From Yuukianura sp. NJ FZ-2021 (Eukaryota), in the NCBI GenBank assembly GCA_046563655.1, contig CM102284.1, positions 5,580,001 to 5,644,000 of the forward strand: DNA of 64,000 bases. Direction: 5' to 3'. The translations under genes were made by a program, and so were the position numbers. Shown piece after piece: positions 3,776-58,058 of the stretch; positions within the stretch are counted from its first letter, which is position 1; every line of letters starts with the position of its first letter. The notes below the pieces were generated by a model, which was given only the letters and a program-made list of their open reading frames with translations, made no database searches and had not been told where the DNA came from.

Positions 3776-5047
3776 ATGCCCGGAAAAATTTTGACTGAAG
3801 CTGATAAGGAAAACGCAGAGAATTTCGCTCCGAATGCTGAGTTATTTCAAGATTCGGTGAAAGGAAACATTTGTTTTCTGCCGAGACACTACAATGACTA
3901 CTCCAAAATTATCGAAAATTTTGAAGTGCGTGATACTGACGTTTGGGTGGTTTCGTATATTAAAGCGGGTAAGAAATTTCAAAAACTTTCAAAATTTTGA
4001 CGGAAATTTCAGAACTTAAGTTTTTGTGCTTCACACGTTAGGCACAACCTGGACGCAGGAAATGGCTTGGTTGATTGGGAATGACCTGGACTATGAAGGA
4101 GCTCAGGAGATTCTGCCTCTGAGATTCCCATATTTTGAATTCGACACGACTTGGAGTAACAAACTAGGAGGAGGTCAAAGGTCAAACAGAGCTACAACTT
4201 CTATGGACGTCGTTCATCGTATGAGTCACGACAGGCCAAGATACATTAAAACCCATCTTCCATTTCATCTTCTGCCGAAACAGATTAGGTCAGGGGTCAA
4301 GTCACCTAAGATCATTTACTGTGCTCGAAACCCCAAAGACGTCTGCGTGTCATTCTACCATCACCGTGTTCTTACTGAAGACTACGCAGGGTCACTGGAT
4401 GACTTTGTAGATGAATTCATCGGCACAGTCGCAAATTGTAAGAAATTTCAATCACTCTGTTTTAAAAAAAGCTTCCTCTCTACAAAATTTTGACGTTTTT
4501 GAAAACATTTTCAAATTTCCTAGCCAAGTATGCCCCCTACTGGAGTCACGTTGGTGAGTTTTGGAAACGTCAGAATCAGTCCAACATTCTGTTCATAACG
4601 TATGAGGAAATGAAAGAGGTAAGCTGCTAATTCAGAAACAATACGATTTCAAATTTGTGAAATTAGACAAAAAGTGGAAAAAAAAATACAAACATCGACA
4701 TACGAAACTGAGAATTTCAAAAGTATCTTCTGGTGCTTCTTTAGAATCTGAAATCAGTTGTTGGGAAATGTGCCAAATTCCTGGACAAGACAATCAGCCC
4801 AGAAGCTCTGCCTAGTCTTCTGAATCACCTCAGTTTTGAATCTATGCGAGTCAATCCCTTTGTGAATTACGATGAAATTACAGAGACGTTGGTCAGAGCC
4901 AGAGGGAAGGAAAGGAAAAGTCATTTCATGAGGAAAGGAAAAGTTGGCTCTTGGAAAGAAGAACTTTCACCACAATCCATTTCAAAATTTAACACATGGA
5001 TCAACCACAATCAAATTCAAGGAATTTGGAACAAAACTTTTTTCTAA
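3776..5047 (+). CDS. Cytosolic PAPS-dependent sulfotransferase (SULT1-like, ~328 aa, 4 exons)
   Basis: Exons 3776-3968, 4042-4437, 4524-4618, 4745-5047 (987 nt, in frame). 5'-PSB loop SYIKAGTTW, catalytic KTHLP, 3'-PB motif YCARNPKDVCVSFYHH, YEEMK and C-terminal RKGKVGSWK. Confidence 0.93.
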
Positions 5048-6820: not shown

Positions 6821-10965
<4,145 letters not shown>

Positions 10966-21194: not shown

Positions 21195-24100
21195 TTAAGT
21201 CCCCCAGGGACAAAATAGCCTTCCAAACAGCACCAAGATGACAAGTTGATATGAGGTGGATGATAAGTTCTGGAACTGGGCAGAACTGCCACTCAGATCA
21301 TTGCATCGACCTGTTGGAACAAACGCCCAAAACTGTCAAGATTTCGCCCAAACTGAAACTTCTTGAACTTTTGGGAAACTACTGGTTAGGTTTTCCTTGT
21401 TTTGCCTAACTTTAAGCTTTATAAAGGCCCACTTACCGTGTTCAGTGACATTGAAGGCTATGGAGCCCTCAATCCCTGGAGCAATGTTGCGACGACAGGA
21501 GTCAGCGACTGTGGAAAAGAGGAGGAGCCTTCCAGATCCTTGTGGCAGTGTATCACTGGAGTCCAGTCCAGTACTGCTGCTGGACTCGGAGAATCGGTAC
21601 ATTGTGGAAGTGGATTTGAGACGCTGCTGAAATCTGGCGTCAGTACTTTCACGGAAAATGAAACAGTAGCGTCTTGCGGCAGTTGAAGCTCGAGACAACG
21701 GTGTGGCTATCAAGTAACTCACACCCATTTCTTCCCATGTTCCATGACATGCATAATCTGAAATTTTGAAAAACCAAAAACGAAATTTAAAAAAAATCAA
21801 AAAAAAAATCTCAGGAAACTCTGGATTTCGAACACACGGAGAGCGTGATGGACTTAACCAGTGCAACTGTAGATTTAGACTGCTTTTTTAAACAATTGTT
21901 TTGGAAATTCATACCATGACTATGAAAGTGTTCTAAAATCGTGTAAACTTGAAAAAAAAAATTAATTTAAAAATTTTTAACGCTCACCCGAAGATAGGTC
22001 GGTGCTGTGGCACTCTGATCGGATTTGGAGCGTATCGAGTGAACTGCATCCAACGTTAAGCGAGTCGTATCCAGGCAGGGAGCACTTCGTTTGCAGTTGT
22101 CTCCCTTCCCTAATGAATCCCGTTACTTGAAACCTTCCTACGTTTGGACACTGCCTTGTTTCTGGAGTTGAAGCTTTAAAAAAAAGTAAAGGTCAAAGGT
22201 CGCAACTCACTTGAACTAATACTAATTGTTTCTAAAAATGCCACTTACAGACTAGGGTAATGTAGGGAAGCTCTGTTTGATTAAAGTAGTGGTGGTGACA
22301 GGCATCATCTGCCTTCCGGGCCGTATTTCCTGATTAATGTGTTTCCAAAACCCACAAATTTTAAATCCTGGACTGAAAATTTTACTGTTGACCCCGGTGG
22401 TCAAACTTACCTAATTGAATTTCCACTATGTGGCCTTCTCTTCTGTAAATGGCTGAGCATATGTAGCCACTATTGCTAAAAATTGGAAGAAAAAAAACTT
22501 TGAGGTCAATAGCTACGAAGAGGTCAACCAAAGTAAGAAGTCATTGACCTTTGACCTTACCAGTCTGCCGTGGAGTGCAGAATTAACATGACCTTTGACA
22601 GCGTAGGATTCTCTAAAATTTGTGAGCAGGTTGCTGTCATTGTCAATGAATTGGGTCCAACACCACTCAGATCGCTGGCATTGAAAACCCGAAGACCCGA
22701 AGCGCTGTCAAAAACAAAAGTGGATCTTTGGTCCAGTGTGTGCCACTCTGTGTGATGCTGCAACCACGACGGGAACTGACATGGTTTCGGACTGGGGTCT
22801 GAAAGTAGAAATTTTGAAAAAGAGAGTAAATTTTTGGAAAAAGTCTTGTTTTTAGAAAGAACTTACTTTTACGGAGTGTCATCATGCGTGAAAATTCCGT
22901 GAGACTTAGCCCATTGCAGGTTGCATCACCAGACTGAGCGAGTCGAAATATTGCATTCTCCGTTCCATTTGCACTCAAAATTGGAACGTACTTTTTATTT
23001 GTCTTTTCGTAAACGAAGCAACGAAATCTTTCCTCAAAAGACGCTGGATGATTGTATTTGATCAGTCCCAGCAAGTATTTGGAAGAACCTTCTCGCCAAG
23101 TGGCAAGACATTGAAGTTCTTCAGCTAAACAAAAGGTCACAAGAGGTCAAATTACAACTTTTGTAAAAGCAAATTGTCAAATACTTCGAAATTTCAAAAA
23201 TTAGCAATGGGTTGTACATTTGCTTTCACTTCCAGGTAAGTCTGGGCATGCTTGGAAGTTGAGTTGGACGCGGGAGGACTGGATGCATGGCTCAACAGTG
23301 GATGCTGGATATCGACAATCTTTGTGCCCTCGGTTGTATGTGAAGGTGTACGGGCCCTTGAAGGGACATTCGATAGGCACTGCATCGAGTCTGAATTTAA
23401 AAATGAAAAAAACTACAAAATTTCCTGACAAAAAGTGAAATTTTTGTGGCAATTTAGCGTTACCTGAACATGGCATGAAGATTTGCATCGCCGCTGATTG
23501 TTGAGCAAAAGTCCTTTATAGAGCGTCGCTCAGAAACACAGAAAGCTACAAAAGAAAATTATTTTGGAATTTCTGTGTTTTAAGTTTTAGAATTTCAATT
23601 TTTGTAAATTTTCAACACGAATCTGAACTTTGTACAAAATAGTTTCAGTTTCTTACTTTCTTTGTACTGAAGAACATTGAAATGCTTCTCATGAAAAACA
23701 AGGCATCTGTAGCAATACTCTCTCCTGAAATTTAGAAAGTGATTTTCAACTTTTTTTTGTTCCAAAAGCATTTTCAATATGTTAAACAGACGATTTGGAA
23801 AGGTTAAACACTCAAATTCGATGAAAAGGAGAAATTAGACTTCATTGGTATTCACGCAACGTCTTTCTCTGCTTTCTTTTTACTCAACTGCTTGTTTCAA
23901 ATTTAAAATCAAAGTCAAACACTCCACTTTCTCCCGCTTTCTACCTTTTAGTCCTAAAACAAGAAAAACCAATATGTGCTTTAGTTAATGATGATGGTTT
24001 AGGGAAATTCAGGGAACAGGAAGAGAGACAATGGAAGTGAAAACAAAAGACTTGACAGACAATAGACCTCGTCCCAAATGAACTCCCTTCCATCACTCTC

Positions 24101-45010: not shown

Positions 45011-47117
45011 CCAGTTTCATCAGTTTGTTCAAGTTGACTTGAATTAGACTTTGAAGAAGGAAAGTCCTGCGTGAAGAGTAATGATGGAGGACTGCTTGTG
45101 TTCTCTGAATAAATGGAATTCGTCTTAGGGGGGAAAAGCGGCGAGCGGAATCGTTTACTTCCGTTTTCCCCGGAAGTCTTTTCTACACTTTGCTTTTCCT
45201 TATAGGCTTTCCTCCCTCTTTGCCTTAATATTCCGCCCAGGTTTTCAAAATCCTTAAAGTTTTTTGCAACAAAAACTTTGGAAATGGGGTAGGAGAACTT
45301 TATTTTTGGTGCAAAAGTTCAAATTTGTGTTCACTATGTATCGTTCTTTACTGCGTGAAAAACAAAATCCAAAGAACTCCGGAGTTTGAACTCCTTCGAG
45401 CAGTACTTAATACTTTTACTTGGTAGACTTTCGATACATAAACAAATCCCAAGGTTCATTCGATAGGACGTGCAAATTTTTCACAAAATTTGCGCAACCC
45501 GCCCTCCATATTTTTTCTTGTGAAATTTACGCACTCCATTTTCGTATATTTGCCAAGTTTCCCACTTTCTCTCCTTATTTCACAAGAACTCTGGAGATTT
45601 CCATCACATTAAAAAAAATCGCATCCTTCAATCCATATTTTTTCATAACAACTTCATGTGTTTAATTTCGCAACAACGAAGCATTGTAATAGTTTAACTT
45701 TGAAAACAGAAGGGAAATGTGTCAGGATCGATTAGGTTATTAACCTAATCTTAATCTAAGCCAGGTTTAGGTGGTTCGCCTTCGCATTTTCTTTTTTGAG
45801 CTACTTTTCTCCCAAAGGTTACGGATTAATTTTGCTGAGGTTGCTAAAACCTAAACCAGGAAAATTTTGAAGTGGCTAAATTTAAAGAAAAGTGGGTTTG
45901 GCTTAAGTTTTGAGAAGCCGCTACTTTCTCCTTTGTATTTTGAAGTTCCTTTTGATAATCAAGTGAAAGTGGGTGATGAGGACTTGAGGAGCTGCCTGCT
46001 AGTGGGTTTGCTGAGAGTCTGACTTAACTTAAATAGATTAATTCCCCTTTGAGTAATTTGGTTTTGATGAAAATTAATTAAATCCCATCGGGTCAATTCA
46101 CCAGGAAAATCAAAAGGAGAAGTCGCTTTCTCTTTTGGTTTAAATTAGGAGTGGATCCTATTTGTTTGTTTCCTTCCAAGGCTCAGGCCTTGGCTTTCTG
46201 CTTTCACTTGCACAAAAGAGAAAGTTTGTTTGTCTAATGCTTGAGGCAGGAAATAACTTCAGTCGAATCAGGCACATCATTAGAACCTTCCATTGTCCGA
46301 TTCTTACAACAACCTTATCCCTTAGGACTCACGGCTTCAACTAAGGCTTGATTGAATTCTCCCTCTCTATTAAGTAAGTTAATTACTAAACTAGGGTTTG
46401 TTACAATAATTAATCTGCTTTCTTTATTCAAAATGTGTTTCAAATTGCTCAATTTTATACCTTTCGAAATGATTCACAAAGCTTTACAGAGCAGGAGCTA
46501 CTGTAGGTTTCCGATTGTTTCAAACATCGAAGGAATTTTTATAGTAGATTTTTTGCTGCTTCATTAAAATCAATAGATTTTTTTAATAAGAGAAAACGCC
46601 TTGGGAAAGCACAGAGAAAGTCGCGGATTTTACTAACTTTATTTGTCGAGACTGTACGAATGAAGTACCTCGCTTTGAGAGCCCTTGTTTTGAAAATTTG
46701 AAAAGCGTATTCAAAATGTGAAGAGCAAGTGCAGTGGAGTACTTGAACTTTTATGTTTTCTAGGGCCCTTGTCAATCTGTTGAAAATGTGGAACTCTTCA
46801 TTAGAGGAGCCCTTCTTCAAATTTAGTTGCAATTTTTTGGCTTCCCCAAGTTTCAGGAGGGTGAAAGTGAAAACCATTTTTTTTGGGCAAATTAGGTCAA
46901 TTTTTTTTGCTTCAATTTTTCAAATTAGCCGTATTAAACTGAAAACGGACTTTGCGGTTTTTCTGTTTTTTTTTCGCCTAATTCATGATTCATATAACTC
47001 TGGTTGAAGTTCATCAATCAGTATTGATCAGCGCTTTAAGTAAGCTTCAATTGAATTCTAATTGTTGATTTCCTTATTCCAAACTGCTAAAAACTCATAG
47101 AGCAAAAAATTGGTTCA

Positions 47118-47527
47118 ATGAAGAAATCTTTTTTCTGGTTTGTTGTTTTTATGTTTGGCCTGACTATGATTGGAGAAAGTACTGCAGGTATGCATTGTAA
47201 CTATTGTTATATTTTTAAATTTCAAATTTTACACATTCAAAACTGCTTTTGTTCAAATAAAGCAAAGGCAAAGAAGCTCAAATGCCCGCTGAACACTGGT
47301 TACTCAACCTGCACTGTAACGCATAACCGCTGTGGATTTCATGGACAGTGTGCTGGCGGTAAGACTTGAATTTTTAGAGTTTAATTTTAAATTTCGTTAA
47401 AATAAACTACAAAATTAACATTTTTAAATGTTGTTAATTAATTTGAAGGTTTTCATTACTTTCCTTTCCTGCAGGATTGAAATGTTGTAAGGTCAAATGC
47501 AACATGGAATGTGTCTATGGTGTCTAA
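47118..47527 (+). CDS. Secreted single-WAP-domain (waprin/crustin-like) cationic peptide (72 aa, 3 exons)
   Basis: Exons 47118-47187, 47263-47358, 47475-47527 give MKKSFFWFVVFMFGLTMIGESTAAKAKKLKCPLNTGYSTCTVTHNRCGFHGQCAGGLKCCKVKCNMECVYGV*. Signal peptide plus 8 Cys spaced C-x8-C-x6-C-x5-C-x5-CC-x3-C-x3-C, matching a four-disulfide core. Confidence 0.85.
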
Positions 47528-47664: not shown

Positions 47665-49640
47665 CTAAAACATGACTGGCACAAAGTCGTCTAGACTTCT
47701 TTTTCCACCGCTGTTTGAGACTGAGAAGAAAATAATGTTGCCCAAAATAAATGACGCCATTAGACCAGCTTTAACGAACCTAAAAAAGCAATAACGCACA
47801 GATTAATATTAAATTTAACTCAATTAAAGTTGGATCTTACAAATTAACTAGGTCAAATAGTTGACCAATTCGTTTCTTGAGGCTATGCTGTTCCGTGGCT
47901 GGATGATTGCGTGTATTGACCAATGTCTCCACGTCGTCTGTCCCTGTTGACTCTCTGCGCTGTTGAGGCGTCATTTCCAGTGCCTGATTCGTTCTGATTG
48001 GAGTACCAAAGTAGTTGGCAACCAGCGAATCTGTGTTTATAAATAGTGATAAATAGTTAATATAAATAATATTTCATAAAAGTTCTCGTATCAACTTCTG
48101 CTCACCAATTAAACAGAAGATGACATGGAAAACACAGAGGGTGAAATAGACGTCCAACCGAGTACTGTAAGAGATCCTTGGCAAGTCTGAACTTTCTGCA
48201 GCCATAATTATGTTGATAACACAAATCTGCAATAAAATAGATTTAAGTTTAAACTAACTTTAACAATGATATTTAAACAAAAGATTGAACAATCAACTTA
48301 CATTAATGAAATTGATCACTACTGCCACTTTGTCACTTGCAAGCCACAGAGAAAGTAAAGAAATGAAAACAAATAGACACAAGGGCATGAAAAATCTGGA
48401 CAAATAACTTCCATGTGATCGTTCGACCAAAATTTCAACTGCCAGTCTCGAATAGTTTCCTACACAAAATACGAAAACAAATATAAAACACGTGATATAT
48501 TTGGAAAGCTTAGGATTTATGACATGTTTGCTAACCAGTAGTCAGTGCTACTTCAAATTTTCTGGAGCGATGACCTATGACCTTGAATTCCGGAAGAGAG
48601 ACGTCTGACGCTATTCCTACTGAATCTCTTTCACTTCGCCCGAACCAAGTGTACCAAACGTCACTCATAGTGAATCCGTAACTTTCAAATTCCAAATTAC
48701 AAAGTTGCTGGTCAAACGGAAAGTAACTTAGATCCATTGGACACATTGCAGCGACAGTGTATCTGGAATACAAACCAAAGTGCTAAATTCTGTCTATGTA
48801 GATTAACCTTTGACCTCTTTTAAATTTCTGGCTTTTCTCACCTTTGTGATTTGAGAACCAGCCCATTTGAACTGATTCTGACAAACGAATTCGGAACAAA
48901 AGTTTGATGCTGGAAGGAATTGACTTCGTTCACAACAAATGTATCGGGCTCCCAAATTTTGTTAATGTCATCCCCTGAAAGCTATAAGTAGTATAAGTGT
49001 TATGTTGAAATGTTAGCAATTCAAGTTCGAAAATTTTCAAAATTTCATAACCTAGAGAACCAAAACATGCTAACCGTGAAAGAGTCAATCCCTGTGATGT
49101 TTAGATGATCAAATTTGAGGCGATTGTCGTTCCATTTTTGACGAAAATATAGATTTGTGGTGAAAGTCTGAAAAAATGTTTAAACTCGGTAACTAAAATA
49201 CAAAGCAAATAAAAATAAAATGAAAGCATAGTTGCGCGTCTTTACCATATCAAGTTGGTTTATCTCTGTTAACGCAAGTACATACATAGATACTTCCACT
49301 CTCACTGGCTCGGCTTATTGCAAATATAAAAAAAAGCATTAACTTTTAATCATTTTACATTGAAATTTTTTAATTGTAGCTTAATTGCAAACTAAACTTG
49401 CAATTACCTCCAACGTTTGGTCGAATTCCTTTTTCATAATTAGTAAACAACTTGGTCCGTAAGTCTTGGTGTAATTTGTCCATTCTATTTTTTAAAATGA
49501 GTGTTTTTGTGTGTGAAAAATCAAAAAAAAAAGTTGTGTTTTCATAATTTGAAAACTTACGCCGTGACGTGCGTGTTTGTGAAAAAGAGAAAGCAGGCAA
49601 GTGAAAGTAGATGCCCAAGATGTGCAAAATTTCCCTTCAT
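47665..49640 (-). CDS. Cys-loop ligand-gated ion channel subunit with RDL/GABA-receptor-like extracellular domain and divergent TM region (~422 aa, 10 exons)
   Basis: Exons 49640-49561, 49484-49408, 49313-49246, 49167-49075, 48981-48842, 48762-48536, 48459-48302, 48226-48106, 48030-47841, 47779-47665 (1269 nt). Signal peptide; YEKGIRP, YFRQKWNDNRL, IWEPDTF, Cys loop CPMDLSYFPFDQQLC, ESYGFT, LPEF, LTTGNYSRL, LPRISY, LDVY; four hydrophobic segments. Confidence 0.92.
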
Positions 49641-51067
49641 TTTCCTCGCGTCTTTTTCTGAACCGGTCCAACTAAAAACTGAAATTTTTTAAAGTGTTTC
49701 ATCAGCACTATAAGTTAAGTAGGGTTATCTAATTATTTCCCACTTTAATCTCCTTAACCCTCACGACCTATTTTTTCTATAAAAAAAAATCAAGCTCATC
49801 TCTACATGCCAATTGACGCATCTTTGACTCAAACTAGCCCATGAACTTAAGTAGTAGTTTGAGTTTTAGTGTTTTTAGTAGTTAGACAGCGGATGTCGTT
49901 GAGGGTAGTTTGAGTTGTGTAAGATGAAAAATAGAGTTTGCCAATTAAGATTTGATTGACGGAGAGCCTGACATTTCCTTCGTAATTTGAGTTCACTTGG
50001 AGTCGACTACAGATGAAGCTGATTTGAGTAGCTGAATTGCCTTAAGCTTTGGGATTCTAGATCTGAGATGTAGAAATCTAAAAATAGGAGATTTCAAACA
50101 TAAGTGGAGATGGAGATGAAGTGATAAAATGGAGTGGGACATATGGCGACAAAACGAATTCAATTTGAATGTTAAGCGACTGTTCATGCAGAATAACAAG
50201 GGACAAGATGTGGTTTCTTCAGCCATTTTGAAAGCTGCCGCTTAAAAACCGAAACGCTGATGTTGCTAAGGCTGTTTCCAGGCTCTCCAAGCATCACGAG
50301 ATTCAACTTTTCTCCATTTGATTCAATTGAGTCAATGATTTTCCCTTGTGACATCTACTACTGAAAGATGCGGTTTCATTATTCCGAGAAATTCTTGTTC
50401 AAAATCTTCTCTCTTTTGAAAAAAATGTGTTGTACAACTTTTCACACAGTTTGTTTACATTTCTCATGAATTGTGGTTTTGTCAATGTAATTTATAACGT
50501 GGGTGGTACCGTGGGCTGTGGAGTTTTGACATTCTCTGAGCTTTTGCGTGATAATTACAAGATTTTCTTTACATGTAAATTTTGAAGGTCTATGGCTTAT
50601 ATTTTCGATTGTTTTAGAACATGGGTAATGCCAATTATTTTGAGAATAGTTGACTTTTACTTTCCCCTGAGATGATAATGATGATCTATAGAAAATTGGC
50701 GTGTTCACACTTTTTCATCACTGTGGTTTTATCGCTCCTTGTGTTGGTCACCACTAAGCATATAAAATTAAAGTCACGCTAAAAACCACTTTGGAAACCT
50801 AAATTACTAAAACCGGAAGCAGGAAATGAGTTTTTAGAGCGCTAAGAACAACTTCCAAAACATGAGCTTCCATTGTTATTCACACACAAAAATTCCAGTT
50901 TTTTGTTCAAAAATTTAAAATAATTGCTTCCAGAGGTCCAAATGCTAAAAAATTGCGAACTTCCAGACAATTATGAATAATCGAGTTGGTCCAGTTGCTG
51001 TCGCTAGCGTTAGTTGCTTAGTGCGTTGCTAGTTGCGCAATTGCTCCTAAGTTCTTGTAGTTGCGTT

Positions 51068-52695
51068 ATGGCTATGCCCGAGTACTTGAAGTCTCTATCC
51101 CTTAAGATTCCAAGGGGAGCAAATATCGTTGAACCAGAAGAGGTTGGGCCCTTGGAAGAATTTCGGACGCGCGTAAGCAAAATCTACCCTCTTCCAGATG
51201 CAAAGCTCTTGGCATGGCTGAGAGCTCGGAATTTAAATGTCGACAAAGCAGAACAAATGCTTCGAAAACACTTGATTTGGCGTAAGAACAATGAAATCGG
51301 AAAACTCATGTTGTGGGAAAGTCCGAAGAGCTACTTCCCTTACCTTCACTCTGGTTTTGACAGAGAGGGAACTCCAATTTTCATTTTGGTAATTTACTTT
51401 TTAAAAATTTCAACCGAAAAAATTTCCAAACAAATCTGGATCTGTCAAAACGAAACAAATCTTGACAAGGAATCTAACAACAGCTGAAGAGAAAGTCACA
51501 GATTTTTTGAAGTTGACAAATGATCATGACTGGTCTAAGCGAAAGACGCTACATACCAAATGTTTCTAAAAACATTTTCAAAATTGTTGTTCTTTTTTAA
51601 AAACAGCCCATTGGACAGTGGGACTTGAAAGGATGTATTGAAACAGGAGAGATGGTTCCGGCTATGAAATTTACGTATCAGACGCTAGAAACTTTGGTTT
51701 CTGCTGGTGCGATTGTGGGCATTCACCAGGGAATTGTGATTTTGGATTTTGATGGATTCACTTATAGCCAAATTGCTCATCGGACTGTAATCCAAGGACT
51801 AATCGAAACAGTTCGAGTTTTTGAAGCAAATTATCCAGAGGTAATTTTGAACAAGAGTTTTTCGAAAATGAGAAAAAAGTGGCTGTACTTTGCCGTACAA
51901 CAATATTTTTTTTACGTTAAAAATTTTTCCACTGAAAAGTACAGGTGTGCCTTTCCATCTATGTGTTGAGTACGGGATGCTCGAAGTTTTGGAAACTTTT
52001 TTTTTTTAATTTTTTTTTCGTATTTTTGTTTTTTTTAATCAAAATTTCAGATTTTGAAAGCCGGTTACGTCATAAACGCTCCGATGGTGTTCAACATCGT
52101 GTACTCCATTGTCAAACCACTGCTACACTCTCGGACGCTTTCAAAAATTCAAATTTTCAAATCCGATCCAGTAAAATGGAAGCAAGCTCTGCTGCAAAAC
52201 ATAGACAAAAGTCAACTACCGCCGCATTGGGGTGGAACTCGACCAGGATCAGATCAATTTTGTTCCTCTGACTGGTTGACCTCTGACCTCCCGCCGTACT
52301 ACTTCCGCAAGTCCTCTGCCTACTTTGATGAGAGCGGTGAAGAGTGGACGTCCATAAAAATTTCGGCAGGAGAAGTTTTGAAGTTTCCTTATACAGTACC
52401 GGATGGAATTGGAAATAGTTTGGGGAAAGTGCTGTCTTGGGCTTTCTATACTGCTGGAAGTGCAGAGGACATGGACTTTACTATTATTCATGAAAAAACT
52501 AAAACTTATTTAATTGAGAAACGACGAGTCGTGAGTTCTGAAAATTCAAAGGAAACGGGAAGTGTCAATGTTAAGGAATCCGGAAAACATGTTTTGCAAT
52601 TTGATAACAGTTGGAGTAATCGGTCAAAAACGTTGCACTACTCACTTACTTTCACTTCATGTTCGGAAACAGAATTTCAGCATAACATAATGTAA
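51068..52695 (+). CDS. SEC14-like lipid-binding protein (CRAL-TRIO + GOLD; ~399 aa from ATG 51068, 3 exons)
   Basis: Exons 51068-51388, 51607-51840, 52051-52695. CRAL-TRIO_N LLAWLRARNLNVDKAEQMLRKHLIWRK; GFDREGTP, ILDFDG, FEANYPE, YVINAP, IDKSQLPPHWGGT; GOLD domain LSWAF..LQFDNSWS. The start codon is uncertain. Confidence 0.9.
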
Positions 52696-57156: not shown

Positions 57157-58058
57157 CCGTAAGATTTCTGGTAAACGGTCAGTTATATGGAATTTAAGGC
57201 TAGGAACACCATTCTAATGAAAATTTCATGTTTCGAAGTTTAGAGTATATAATTAATATTAATATACGTAATATTCATATATTAATGCTAATTATGGTTG
57301 TGCGCTGTTGCGCAGGTTGTGCGCTGTTGCGCAGGTTGTGCGCTGTTGCGCAGGTTGTGCGCTGTTGCGCAGGTTGTGCGCTGTTGCGCAGGTTGTGCGC
57401 TGTTGCGCAGGTTGTGCGCTGTTGCGCAGGTTGTGCGCTGTTGCGCAGGTTGTGCGCTGTTGCGCAGGTTGTGCGCTGTTGCGCAGGTTGTGCGCTGTTG
57501 CGCAGGTTGTGCGCTGTTGCGCAGGTTGTGCGCTGTTGCGCAGGTTGTGCGCTGTTGCGCAGGTTGTGCGCTGTTGCGCAGGTTGTGCGCTGTTGCGCAG
57601 GTTGTGCGCTGTTGCGCAGGTTGTGCGCTGTTGCGCAGGTTGTGCGCTGTTGCGCAGGTTGTGCGCTGTTGCGCAGGTTGTGCGCTGTTGCGCAGGTTGT
57701 GCGCTGTTGCGCAGGTTGTGCGCTGTTGCGCAGGTTGTGCGCTGTTGCGCAGGTTGTGCGCTGTTGCGCAGGTTGTGCGCTGTTGCGCAGGTTGTGCGCT
57801 GTTGCGCAGGTTGTGCGCTGTTGCGCAGGTTGTGCGCTGTTGCGCAGGTTGTGCGCTGTTGCGCAGGTTGTGCGCTGTTGCGCAGGTTGTGCGCTGTTGC
57901 GCAGTTTGTGCGCAGATATATTAATATTAGTTAATTTTATTTAATTATCTAATTACTTTTGTTTTGCACCAAAAAAAAATTAACCAAAAAAAAAACAATC
58001 GTAAAAAATAAGCCGATAAACTGAAACATACGTTTCCTCCAAAATTAAAACTTTACGG
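57157..58058. mobile_element. Probable nested element (CCGTAA termini, TA TSD) carrying the 19-bp array
   Basis: CAG-TA|CCGTAAGATTT ... AAACTTTACGG|TA-CTG. Removing it restores a palindromic target CAGTACTG. TIRs are short and imperfect. Confidence 0.55.
57296..57903 (+). repeat. Minisatellite: 32 identical copies of GGTTGTGCGCTGTTGCGCA (19 bp)
   Basis: 608 bp = 32 x 19 with no visible variant, followed by a partial degenerate unit GTTTGTGCGCAG. AT-rich flanks on both sides. Confidence 0.97.

Follow-up and report, generated by a model that had tools for sequence, protein, structure and literature searches.

Can a receptor subunit keep the ligand-binding site of an inhibitory neurotransmitter receptor and at the same time rebuild the pore? 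This question is raised by a gene in a stretch of 64,000 nucleotides from Yuukianura sp. NJ FZ-2021 (NCBI GenBank assembly GCA_046563655.1, contig CM102284.1, positions 5,580,001 to 5,644,000 of the forward strand), the whole of which is called the window hereafter and provides the numbering of all positions. The gene, located at 47665..49640 on the minus strand, is a complete Cys-loop receptor gene of 10 exons, which join into a stop-free frame of 422 codons. It resembles RDL, the main inhibitory receptor of arthropods, which responds to γ-aminobutyric acid (GABA) and is the target of cyclodienes, fiproles, isoxazolines and meta-diamides. A first-pass annotation, made from the letters of the DNA alone, had described the product as an RDL-derived subunit with an intact GABA pocket and a rebuilt pore, and here we followed up this description by examining the binding site, the pore helix, the gene model, the phylogenetic placement and the relatives of the receptor product.

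According to the work on honeybee RDL (bioRxiv 10.1101/2025.03.24.644576), GABA is contacted by Y94, R96, R151, S161, E189, S190, F191 and Y239, and the response is lost in the substitutions R96N, E189G and Y239A. We mapped these sites in the numbering of the honeybee RDL chain 9she_A, using structure alignments and a MAFFT alignment which agreed with each other. In the receptor product they read Y, R, R, S, E, S, Y and Y, so that eight of eight contact sites are kept, seven of them identical to bee RDL, and the pocket is intact as had been claimed. The site of F191 holds Tyr, a residue also found there in four of the nine canonical RDL rows of our comparison set. The extracellular loop motifs that had been called RDL-like (YFRQ, PDTF, ESYGF and LTTGNYSRL) are all found in the translation, and the binding domain scores closest to RDL (see below). 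Moreover, the receptor product retains the FPFD of the Cys-loop, the Arg preceding membrane helix M1, the Pro within M1 and the LPRISY linker, so that, reasoning from established Cys-loop mechanics, the elements linking binding to the membrane domain appear to be in place.

The opposite holds for the pore helix, M2. In RDL, the motif PAR acts as the anion filter, and positions 2' and 6' form the blocker site of picrotoxin, dieldrin and fipronil. Anchored on LP(K/R)ISY, M2 of the receptor product aligns to canonical RDL M2 with a BLOSUM62 score of +14, compared to at most +3 for the remaining eight of nine ungapped registers. In the anchored register, the stripe facing the lumen reads 2' Val, 6' Ile, 9' Cys, 13' Ile, 16' Ala and 20' Ser, such that none of the RDL residues at 2' (Ala or Ser), 6' (Thr), 9' (Leu) and 13' (Thr) is present. 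The MAFFT alignment opens a two-column gap at -1'/0', so that from M1 to M2 two residues fewer are present than in RDL, and both the Pro and the Arg of PAR are missing; position -1' is Val, with an Asp-Lys pair further in. The M2 numbering of the first-pass annotation, including the shorter linker and the loss of PAR, was thus recovered. At the non-lumen faces, 7' and 12' stay polar, with Asn in place of the Thr of RDL, while 6' and 13' at the lumen have become Ile. Hydropathy of the helix is 1.85 compared to approximately 0.7 in canonical RDL, the number of Ser and Thr residues is 2 compared to 9-10, and identity to canonical RDL M2 is 0.08. In Drosophila RDL, the single substitution T6'M abolishes the picrotoxin block and leaves a working channel, as reported in PMC4261083; the wholly aliphatic 2'-13' stripe of the receptor product departs from RDL much further than that.

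The gene that encodes this combination is real and intact, far beyond chance. All nine introns begin with GT and end with AG and are 48 to 93 nt long, and the 422-codon frame stays open over ten exons in DNA of 38% G+C (Table 1). For exon 5, the acceptor at 48981 was taken, the sole one with a phase fitting the donor of exon 4. Support from homology, based on tblastn with relatives and on Pfam, spans exons 2-8 and, weakly, exon 10: the relatives P0066 and P0008 match 49406-49468, which corresponds to exon 2, and the C-terminus of P0087 has a weak tblastn match to exon 10 (E 0.74). Exon 7 covers loop C, M1 and the M2 residues as far as 7' in a single open frame, and exon 8 continues from 8' with the rest of M2, LPRISY and M3. 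From the frames of these two exons and their splice signals we reproduced both the M1-M2 peptide and the phase-0 junction 48302/48226 by which M2 had been said to be split. With 422 amino acids, the product is short compared to the 517-731 amino acids of the full-length canonical RDL rows, and its tail after LPRISY counts 127 residues versus 169 and 177 in two canonical RDLs, these latter stretches being cut before M4.

An exon that would restore a canonical M2 had been named beforehand as evidence that would overturn the description of the pore. Using three canonical RDL rows and four divergent relatives as tblastn queries, no spare M2 exon was found, there being no match below E 0.3 outside the exons of the gene. 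Similarly, the region from 48459 to 48106 offers 15 GT..AG pairs that stay in frame and free of stops, and PAR or a 9' Leu results from none of them; the pair chosen for intron 7 has the best consensus splice signals. A tblastn search of the window with the spliced product matched its own exons only; a tandem paralogue is therefore absent within these 64 kb.

Membership of the Cys-loop superfamily is apparent from the domain, the Cys spacing with its core and the four helices. The Pfam family PF02931 (Neur_chan_LBD) matches exon 6 with E 4.8e-13 (49.5 bits at a cut-off of 26) and exon 5 with E 4.5e-6 (26.7 bits); Neur_chan_memb matches exon 8 weakly and under the cut-off (E 0.023), and exons 7, 9 and 10, taken singly, have no Pfam match. 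The Cys pair in exon 6 encloses 13 residues with YFPFD among them, which gives a Cys-loop with the FP-D core present. Four hydrophobic helices M1-M4 follow, with the pre-M1 Arg and the M1 Pro in place and the M4 stretch aligning with relatives. Among solved structures, the best match of exon 6 is the honeybee RDL chain 9she_A (E 8.9e-24, 86 bits), followed by GABA-A beta-3 (5.6e-12, 48.5 bits), and the best match of exon 7 is residues 238-279 of the same RDL chain (E 2.5e-5), with other chains aligning over M1 as well; across the linker and M3 encoded by exon 8, chains of GABA-A and Gly receptors align.

In a phmmer search with exon 6 against 1.84 billion representatives, 774 matches were obtained at E <=0.001, none of which reached <=1e-30. 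Among the 150 of these 774 matches that were listed, the closest full-length proteins are P0008 (42.7% identity over 300 amino acids) and P0017, an RDL of a predatory mite (40.7% over 312 amino acids). A homologue search with exon 6 as query gave 16 candidates and no match, and a search with the alignment of 17 relative rows and exon pieces gave five proteins, none closer than those found before. Querying the ESM Atlas with the relative P0066 returned generic Cys-loop clusters only.

To place the receptor product, quick trees were built from it and 51 representatives aligning over at least 250 residues, with seven long multi-domain rows (P0035, P0042, P0045, P0075, P0081, P0114 and P0123) excluded by name ahead of this length filter. 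In the posterior mean site frequency (PMSF) tree, the product groups with P0066 and P0083 (support of 83 in the Shimodaira-Hasegawa-like approximate likelihood ratio test, SH-aLRT) and then with P0087 and P0118 (93), within a divergent group of 11 rows (80). This group is part of a starred set of 26 rows (97) that also contains all nine canonical RDL rows of arthropods and six further divergent ones. Sister to the 26-row set are four lophotrochozoan or unnamed RDL-like rows, and the beta-, alpha- and Gly-like rows are on the opposite side. When only the binding domain was used, the trio of the product, P0066 and P0083 held (81) in an RDL-containing set of 22 rows (SH-aLRT 90, unstarred), and in the LG+G4 tree the product stands with P0066, P0087 and P0083 (95) inside an RDL-like set of 29 rows (SH-aLRT 85). 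Each of the three trees unites the nine canonical RDL rows in a starred clade (99, 95 and 99) from which the receptor product is absent, in line with the earlier claim that it is not canonical Rdl. Lying outside this clade and lacking both PAR and the lumen residues, it is therefore not filed as an Rdl orthologue.

Profile scores of the binding domain, which are affected by the unequal sizes of the groups, decrease from canonical RDL (243.5 bits) over lophotrochozoan RDL-like (228.5 bits), beta-like of hemichordate, coral and mite (203.1 bits), acoel beta-like (190.8 bits), alpha-like (177.7 bits) and Gly/Glu-like (177.0 bits) to vertebrate beta (138.6 bits). Together with the trees, these scores make RDL ancestry the best-supported reading, moderately supported by the comparison of sequences and unproven.

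The first-pass annotation treated the locus by itself, and a point absent from it is that there is a wider set of RDL-like proteins with a non-canonical M2. Counted loosely, the divergent RDL-like proteins number 17, made up of the 11-row group and the six other rows. The -2' Pro is kept in nine of nine canonical RDL rows, in one row of the 11-row group and in none of the six others, and the 0' Arg in 9/9, 8/11 and 6/6, respectively. At the lumen, 6' Thr is kept in 8/9 canonical rows, the exception being a mite row with Met, in 0/11 rows of the group and in 2/6 others, 9' Leu in 9/9, 6/11 and 6/6, and 13' Thr in 9/9, 0/11 and 1/6. All eight pocket sites, on the other hand, are kept in nine of nine canonical rows, seven of the 11 and five of the six. 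Mean pairwise identity among canonical RDL rows is 0.56 in the binding domain, 0.90 in M1, 0.93 in M2 and 0.70 in the linker plus M3, compared to 0.41, 0.27, 0.13 and 0.28 in the 11-row group. As judged from these alignments, the ranking of constraint is inverted in the group, with a conserved pocket and a variable pore helix. This inversion is a clear signature which can be searched for in any arthropod genome.

Within this fast-evolving RDL-like set, the receptor product is, by its sequence, an extreme member. It shares a mutual identity of approximately 30-35% with P0066 and P0083, and the three have, in this order, I, L and L at 6', C, A and G at 9' and I, V and I at 13'. Other records in the divergent set carry the name 'beta-like' or none, namely those of a damselfly (P0039), a springtail (P0105) and a mayfly (P0037, outside the tree). 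Contigs of 1.2-1.5 kb, each nearly filled by one open frame, carry the nearest kin of the product; being almost all open frame, these contigs are probably transcripts and the group is therefore probably expressed. The product and its relatives have an acidic motif in the tail after M4 in common, which also occurs in two canonical RDL rows out of nine (P0126 and P0007), and the DDF-V of the product resembles the DDLV tail of insect RDL rows. The searched part of the literature, supplements aside, contains no account of RDL-derived subunits in which the pocket is conserved and M2 rebuilt.

What, then, might such a subunit do? The reading we place first, at slightly under an even chance, is that of a GABA-binding accessory or weakly conducting subunit of RDL descent. 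Such a subunit would still bind GABA or a very close analogue, and its membrane domain would still move, while the classical chloride-selective pore and the 2'/6' blocker site would not be formed. As a homomer it would make a poorly conducting channel at most; assembled together with canonical RDL-type subunits, it would change conductance, gating and blocker sensitivity. In case of co-assembly with RDL, it would be a naturally occurring cause of changes in GABA signalling and of insensitivity to blockers.

Several points weigh against an accessory subunit of RDL descent. Co-assembly with RDL is a step that we infer, purely so. The derivation from RDL, claimed from the start, stood in part: the RDL-like sets have SH-aLRT values of 85-97, but an approximately unbiased (AU) test did not reject the alternative in which the product is placed with 22 non-RDL rows (log-likelihood difference 18, p 0.297). 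A single origin of the divergent group is not robust, as the grouping needs one change in the PMSF tree, six in the binding-domain tree, where it breaks up, and four in the LG+G4 tree. Among solved structures, exons 4, 5 and 8 match the alpha-2, pi and delta subunits of GABA-A receptors slightly better than RDL, and a close orthologue was not found in the protein libraries, where the best of the 150 listed matches remains at the 42.7% over 300 amino acids given above. Finally, the pattern of an aliphatic 6', a small 9' and an aliphatic 13' in the product, P0066 and P0083 could be a working pore of other design, and a hydrophobic 6' by itself leaves conduction in place (PMC4261083).

These last points lead to a second reading, the main rival, which we hold possible although rather doubtful: the product would form a functional GABA-gated homomer whose pore has been redesigned and whose selectivity and pharmacology are unlike those of RDL, the channel being maybe cation-permeable or non-selective. 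Its pore would combine bulky aliphatic residues at 6' and 13' and a small one at 9' with a cytoplasmic mouth bearing Lys and Asp and a Glu close to the outer mouth. As a gated channel would need, the coupling elements are in place and no GABA contact is lost, the 6'/9'/13' pattern common to the product, P0066 and P0083 looks like constraint rather than drift, and 7' and 12' stay polar while 6' and 13' at the lumen turn aliphatic. GABA-gated cation channels exist, such as EXP-1 and LGC-35 of nematodes and GRD/LCCH3 of insects, and provide a precedent; they resemble the receptor product in having a GABA-type site and an M2 devoid of PAR. In these channels, however, the cytoplasmic mouth of M2 bears an acidic residue, whereas the product has Val at -1' and only the Asp-Lys pair further in. 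Both known selectivity filters, PAR and an acidic -1' as in GEK, are therefore absent. Moreover, the 2'-16' stripe of Val, Ile, Cys, Ile and Ala has no hydroxyl ring, which is unusual in conducting Cys-loop pores, M2 identity in the wider group is just 0.13, and short hydrophobic stretches align uncertainly. The T6'M form of RDL does still conduct (PMC4261083), which speaks for the redesigned pore.

We consider it unlikely that the pore of the receptor product and its nearest kin conducts no ions at all, M2 having become an ordinary greasy helix while binding and coupling are kept, so that the protein would sense GABA without being a channel, act as a GABA sink or dominantly silence RDL channels. 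If this were true, the product would be a rare pentameric receptor that has given up ion permeation, and the group an undescribed arthropod radiation of RDL-derived proteins, with selection targeting the ligand site instead of the passage of ions.

A chemosensory receptor had been proposed by analogy to the chemotactile receptors of cephalopods, and more broadly the ligand could be something other than GABA, a metabolite for instance. The appeal of this reading lies in the product being an orphan, fast-evolving and lineage-restricted paralogue whose cytoplasmic loop is short. Divergent Cys-loop subunits specific to one lineage are common. The cephalopod receptors, however, show the opposite of a conserved site and a variable pore. 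In the receptor product the pore varies and the pocket does not, the eight contacts being kept here as well as in 7/11 rows of the divergent group and 5/6 further divergent rows, and this disfavours the chemosensory analogy and makes a non-GABA ligand quite unlikely. Such expansions in other branches of the Cys-loop family often have no known ligand, as exemplified by the 'divergent histamine' clades of ticks (PMC9219234). According to the same paper, these clades (divergent histamine 1-3) and a divergent glutamate-gated chloride channel (GluCl) resemble the receptor product in being long-branched, lineage-restricted and derived from an anion-channel clade, most of them being reported as expressed in the tick central nervous system; they differ in that their parent is a histamine-gated chloride channel (HisCl) or GluCl and in forming tandem arrays (PMC9219234), whereas the product is RDL-like and a singleton in 64 kb.

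Very unlikely, in our opinion, is a decaying duplicate or young pseudogene of an RDL-type gene with a drifting pore helix, as the M2 identity of 0.08 to canonical RDL, the singleton status and the lack of a close orthologue in the protein libraries might suggest. The frame has 422 open codons and nine introns with canonical ends, the changes in M2 are patterned, with an aliphatic lumen and polar 7' and 12', and similar relatives occupy the 1.2-1.5 kb contigs of probable transcripts. The divergence is old, at approximately 41-43% identity to RDL, yet the Cys-loop, pocket, pre-M1 Arg, M1 Pro, LPRISY and post-M4 tail are kept, and this identity with functional sites intact argues against a long neutral decay. 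A gene-model artefact, in which the real transcript would use another exon or splice and carry a canonical M2, is scarcely credible, since the first half of M2 shares an open exon with M1 and the second half with the linker and M3, the intron between them is just 75 nt long, the seven RDL and RDL-like tblastn queries match nothing beyond the gene's own exons below E 0.3, and 0/15 alternative splices yield PAR or 9' Leu.

Compared to RDL as known from the honeybee structures 9she, 9sho, 9sio and 9siq, the receptor product shares the pocket, GNYSRL, the Cys-loop, the pre-M1 Arg, the M1 Pro, LP(K/R)ISY and the acidic post-M4 tail. It differs by its position outside the canonical clade, an M2 of 8% identity without PAR, 6'/13' Thr and 9' Leu, a shorter M1-M2 loop and a short cytoplasmic loop. 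A further likeness concerns exon structure. The insect RDL prediction P0004 (434 amino acids) includes the two mutually exclusive forms of exon 6 one after the other, which explains the two stretches matched in it by the phmmer scan with our exon 6. Its second exon 6 copy appears to end at LTT|G, where the exon 6/7 boundary of the product also lies, and this hints at a shared intron position.

RDLs of mites also deviate at 6', those of Varroa destructor having a natural non-Thr residue at this position (PMC4261083). The predatory-mite row P0017 has Met at 6' and keeps PAR, 9' Leu and 13' Thr, whereas the whole lumen stripe of the receptor product is altered. Unusual residues at 2' and 6' may also occur in Rdl paralogues of spider mites. 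The 6' Met of P0017 is the same substitution as the T6'M which abolishes picrotoxin block in the Varroa paper (PMC4261083). For the spider mite, three Rdl genes have been counted (PMC4652392).

Besides RDL, the subunits LCCH3, GRD, 8916 and HoCas resemble the receptor product as Cys-loop subunits of the GABA-receptor group (PMC11275251). HoCas, named in 2024 as a fifth clade of arthropod GABA receptors, is reported there from Chelicerata, Crustacea, Collembola and hemimetabolous insects and is grouped with GRD and 8916, not with RDL (PMC11275251). Because of this published placement, an identity of the receptor product with HoCas was set aside; the product scores 243.5 bits for RDL versus 177.7 bits for alpha-like.

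Table 1. Exons and other features of the receptor gene, and neighbouring features, in the window
Feature	Position	Strand	Evidence and reading
Exon 1	49561..49640	-	ATG at 49640, open frame, GTAAGT donor; hydrophobic N-terminus read from the translation, a putative signal peptide
Exon 2	49408..49484	-	N-terminal helix of the extracellular domain; AG acceptor, GT donor, frame kept
Exon 3	49246..49313	-	beta1-beta2 region; RDL-like proteins align throughout
Exon 4	49075..49167	-	Loop D, YFRQ; residues 89-112 of 9she_A align, Y94/R96 falling on Tyr/Arg
Exon 5	48842..48981	-	Loop A (PDTF) and loop E (Arg/Ser = R151/S161); ungapped match to 9she_A 120-161
Exon 6	48536..48762	-	Cys-loop (48743..48699), loop B (ESYGF), loop F, start of loop C
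Exon 7	48302..48459	-	Loop C (GNYSRL), pre-M1 Arg, M1 with Pro (~48406..48341), shortened M1-M2 loop, M2 -2' to 7' (48331..48302)
Intron 7	48227..48301	-	75 nt, phase 0, between M2 7' and 8'; GTAAGT donor, pyrimidine tract and CAG acceptor
Exon 8	48106..48226	-	M2 8' to 20' (48226..48188), LPRISY linker (48184..48167), M3
Exon 9	47841..48030	-	End of M3 and short M3-M4 cytoplasmic loop; no Pfam family match
Exon 10	47665..47779	-	M4 (~47778..47719), post-M4 tail with acidic DDF-V motif, stop 47667..47665
ATTAAA and AATAAA	47630..47640	-	Resemble polyadenylation signals, a function they may have; ~30 nt past the stop
Small open frame	47091-47369	+	Hydrophobic N-terminus, several Cys, no Pfam match
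SEC14-like gene	51014-52695	+	CRAL_TRIO_N, CRAL_TRIO, weak GOLD
Sulfotransferase-domain exon	4020-4493	+	E 5.2e-25
Na+/K+-ATPase alpha exons	7401-9989	+	Include an exon of 123 amino acids
DUF7042-domain exon	22667-23146	-	E 1.8e-14
Minisatellite	57296-57913		19-bp unit, 32.5 copies, 99% matches

The neighbours of the receptor gene (the CRAL-TRIO/GOLD gene, the sulfotransferase, the Na/K-ATPase and the DUF7042 gene) are unrelated to it. The SEC14-like gene stands head-to-head with the receptor gene, approximately 1.4 kb from its start codon. Rfam, run over the window 1-64000, gave no family at gathering score. The 123-amino-acid exon of the Na+/K+-ATPase is at best 79-80% identical to proteins of the marine catalogue and 74-76% identical to those of isopod, mayfly, stick insects, dragonfly and scorpion, which points to a source arthropod sparsely covered by protein databases. 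The minisatellite produces artefactual long open frames in all six frames. The small open frame which converges with the 3' end of the receptor gene could, judging by its translation, encode a small secreted Cys-rich peptide, or nothing.

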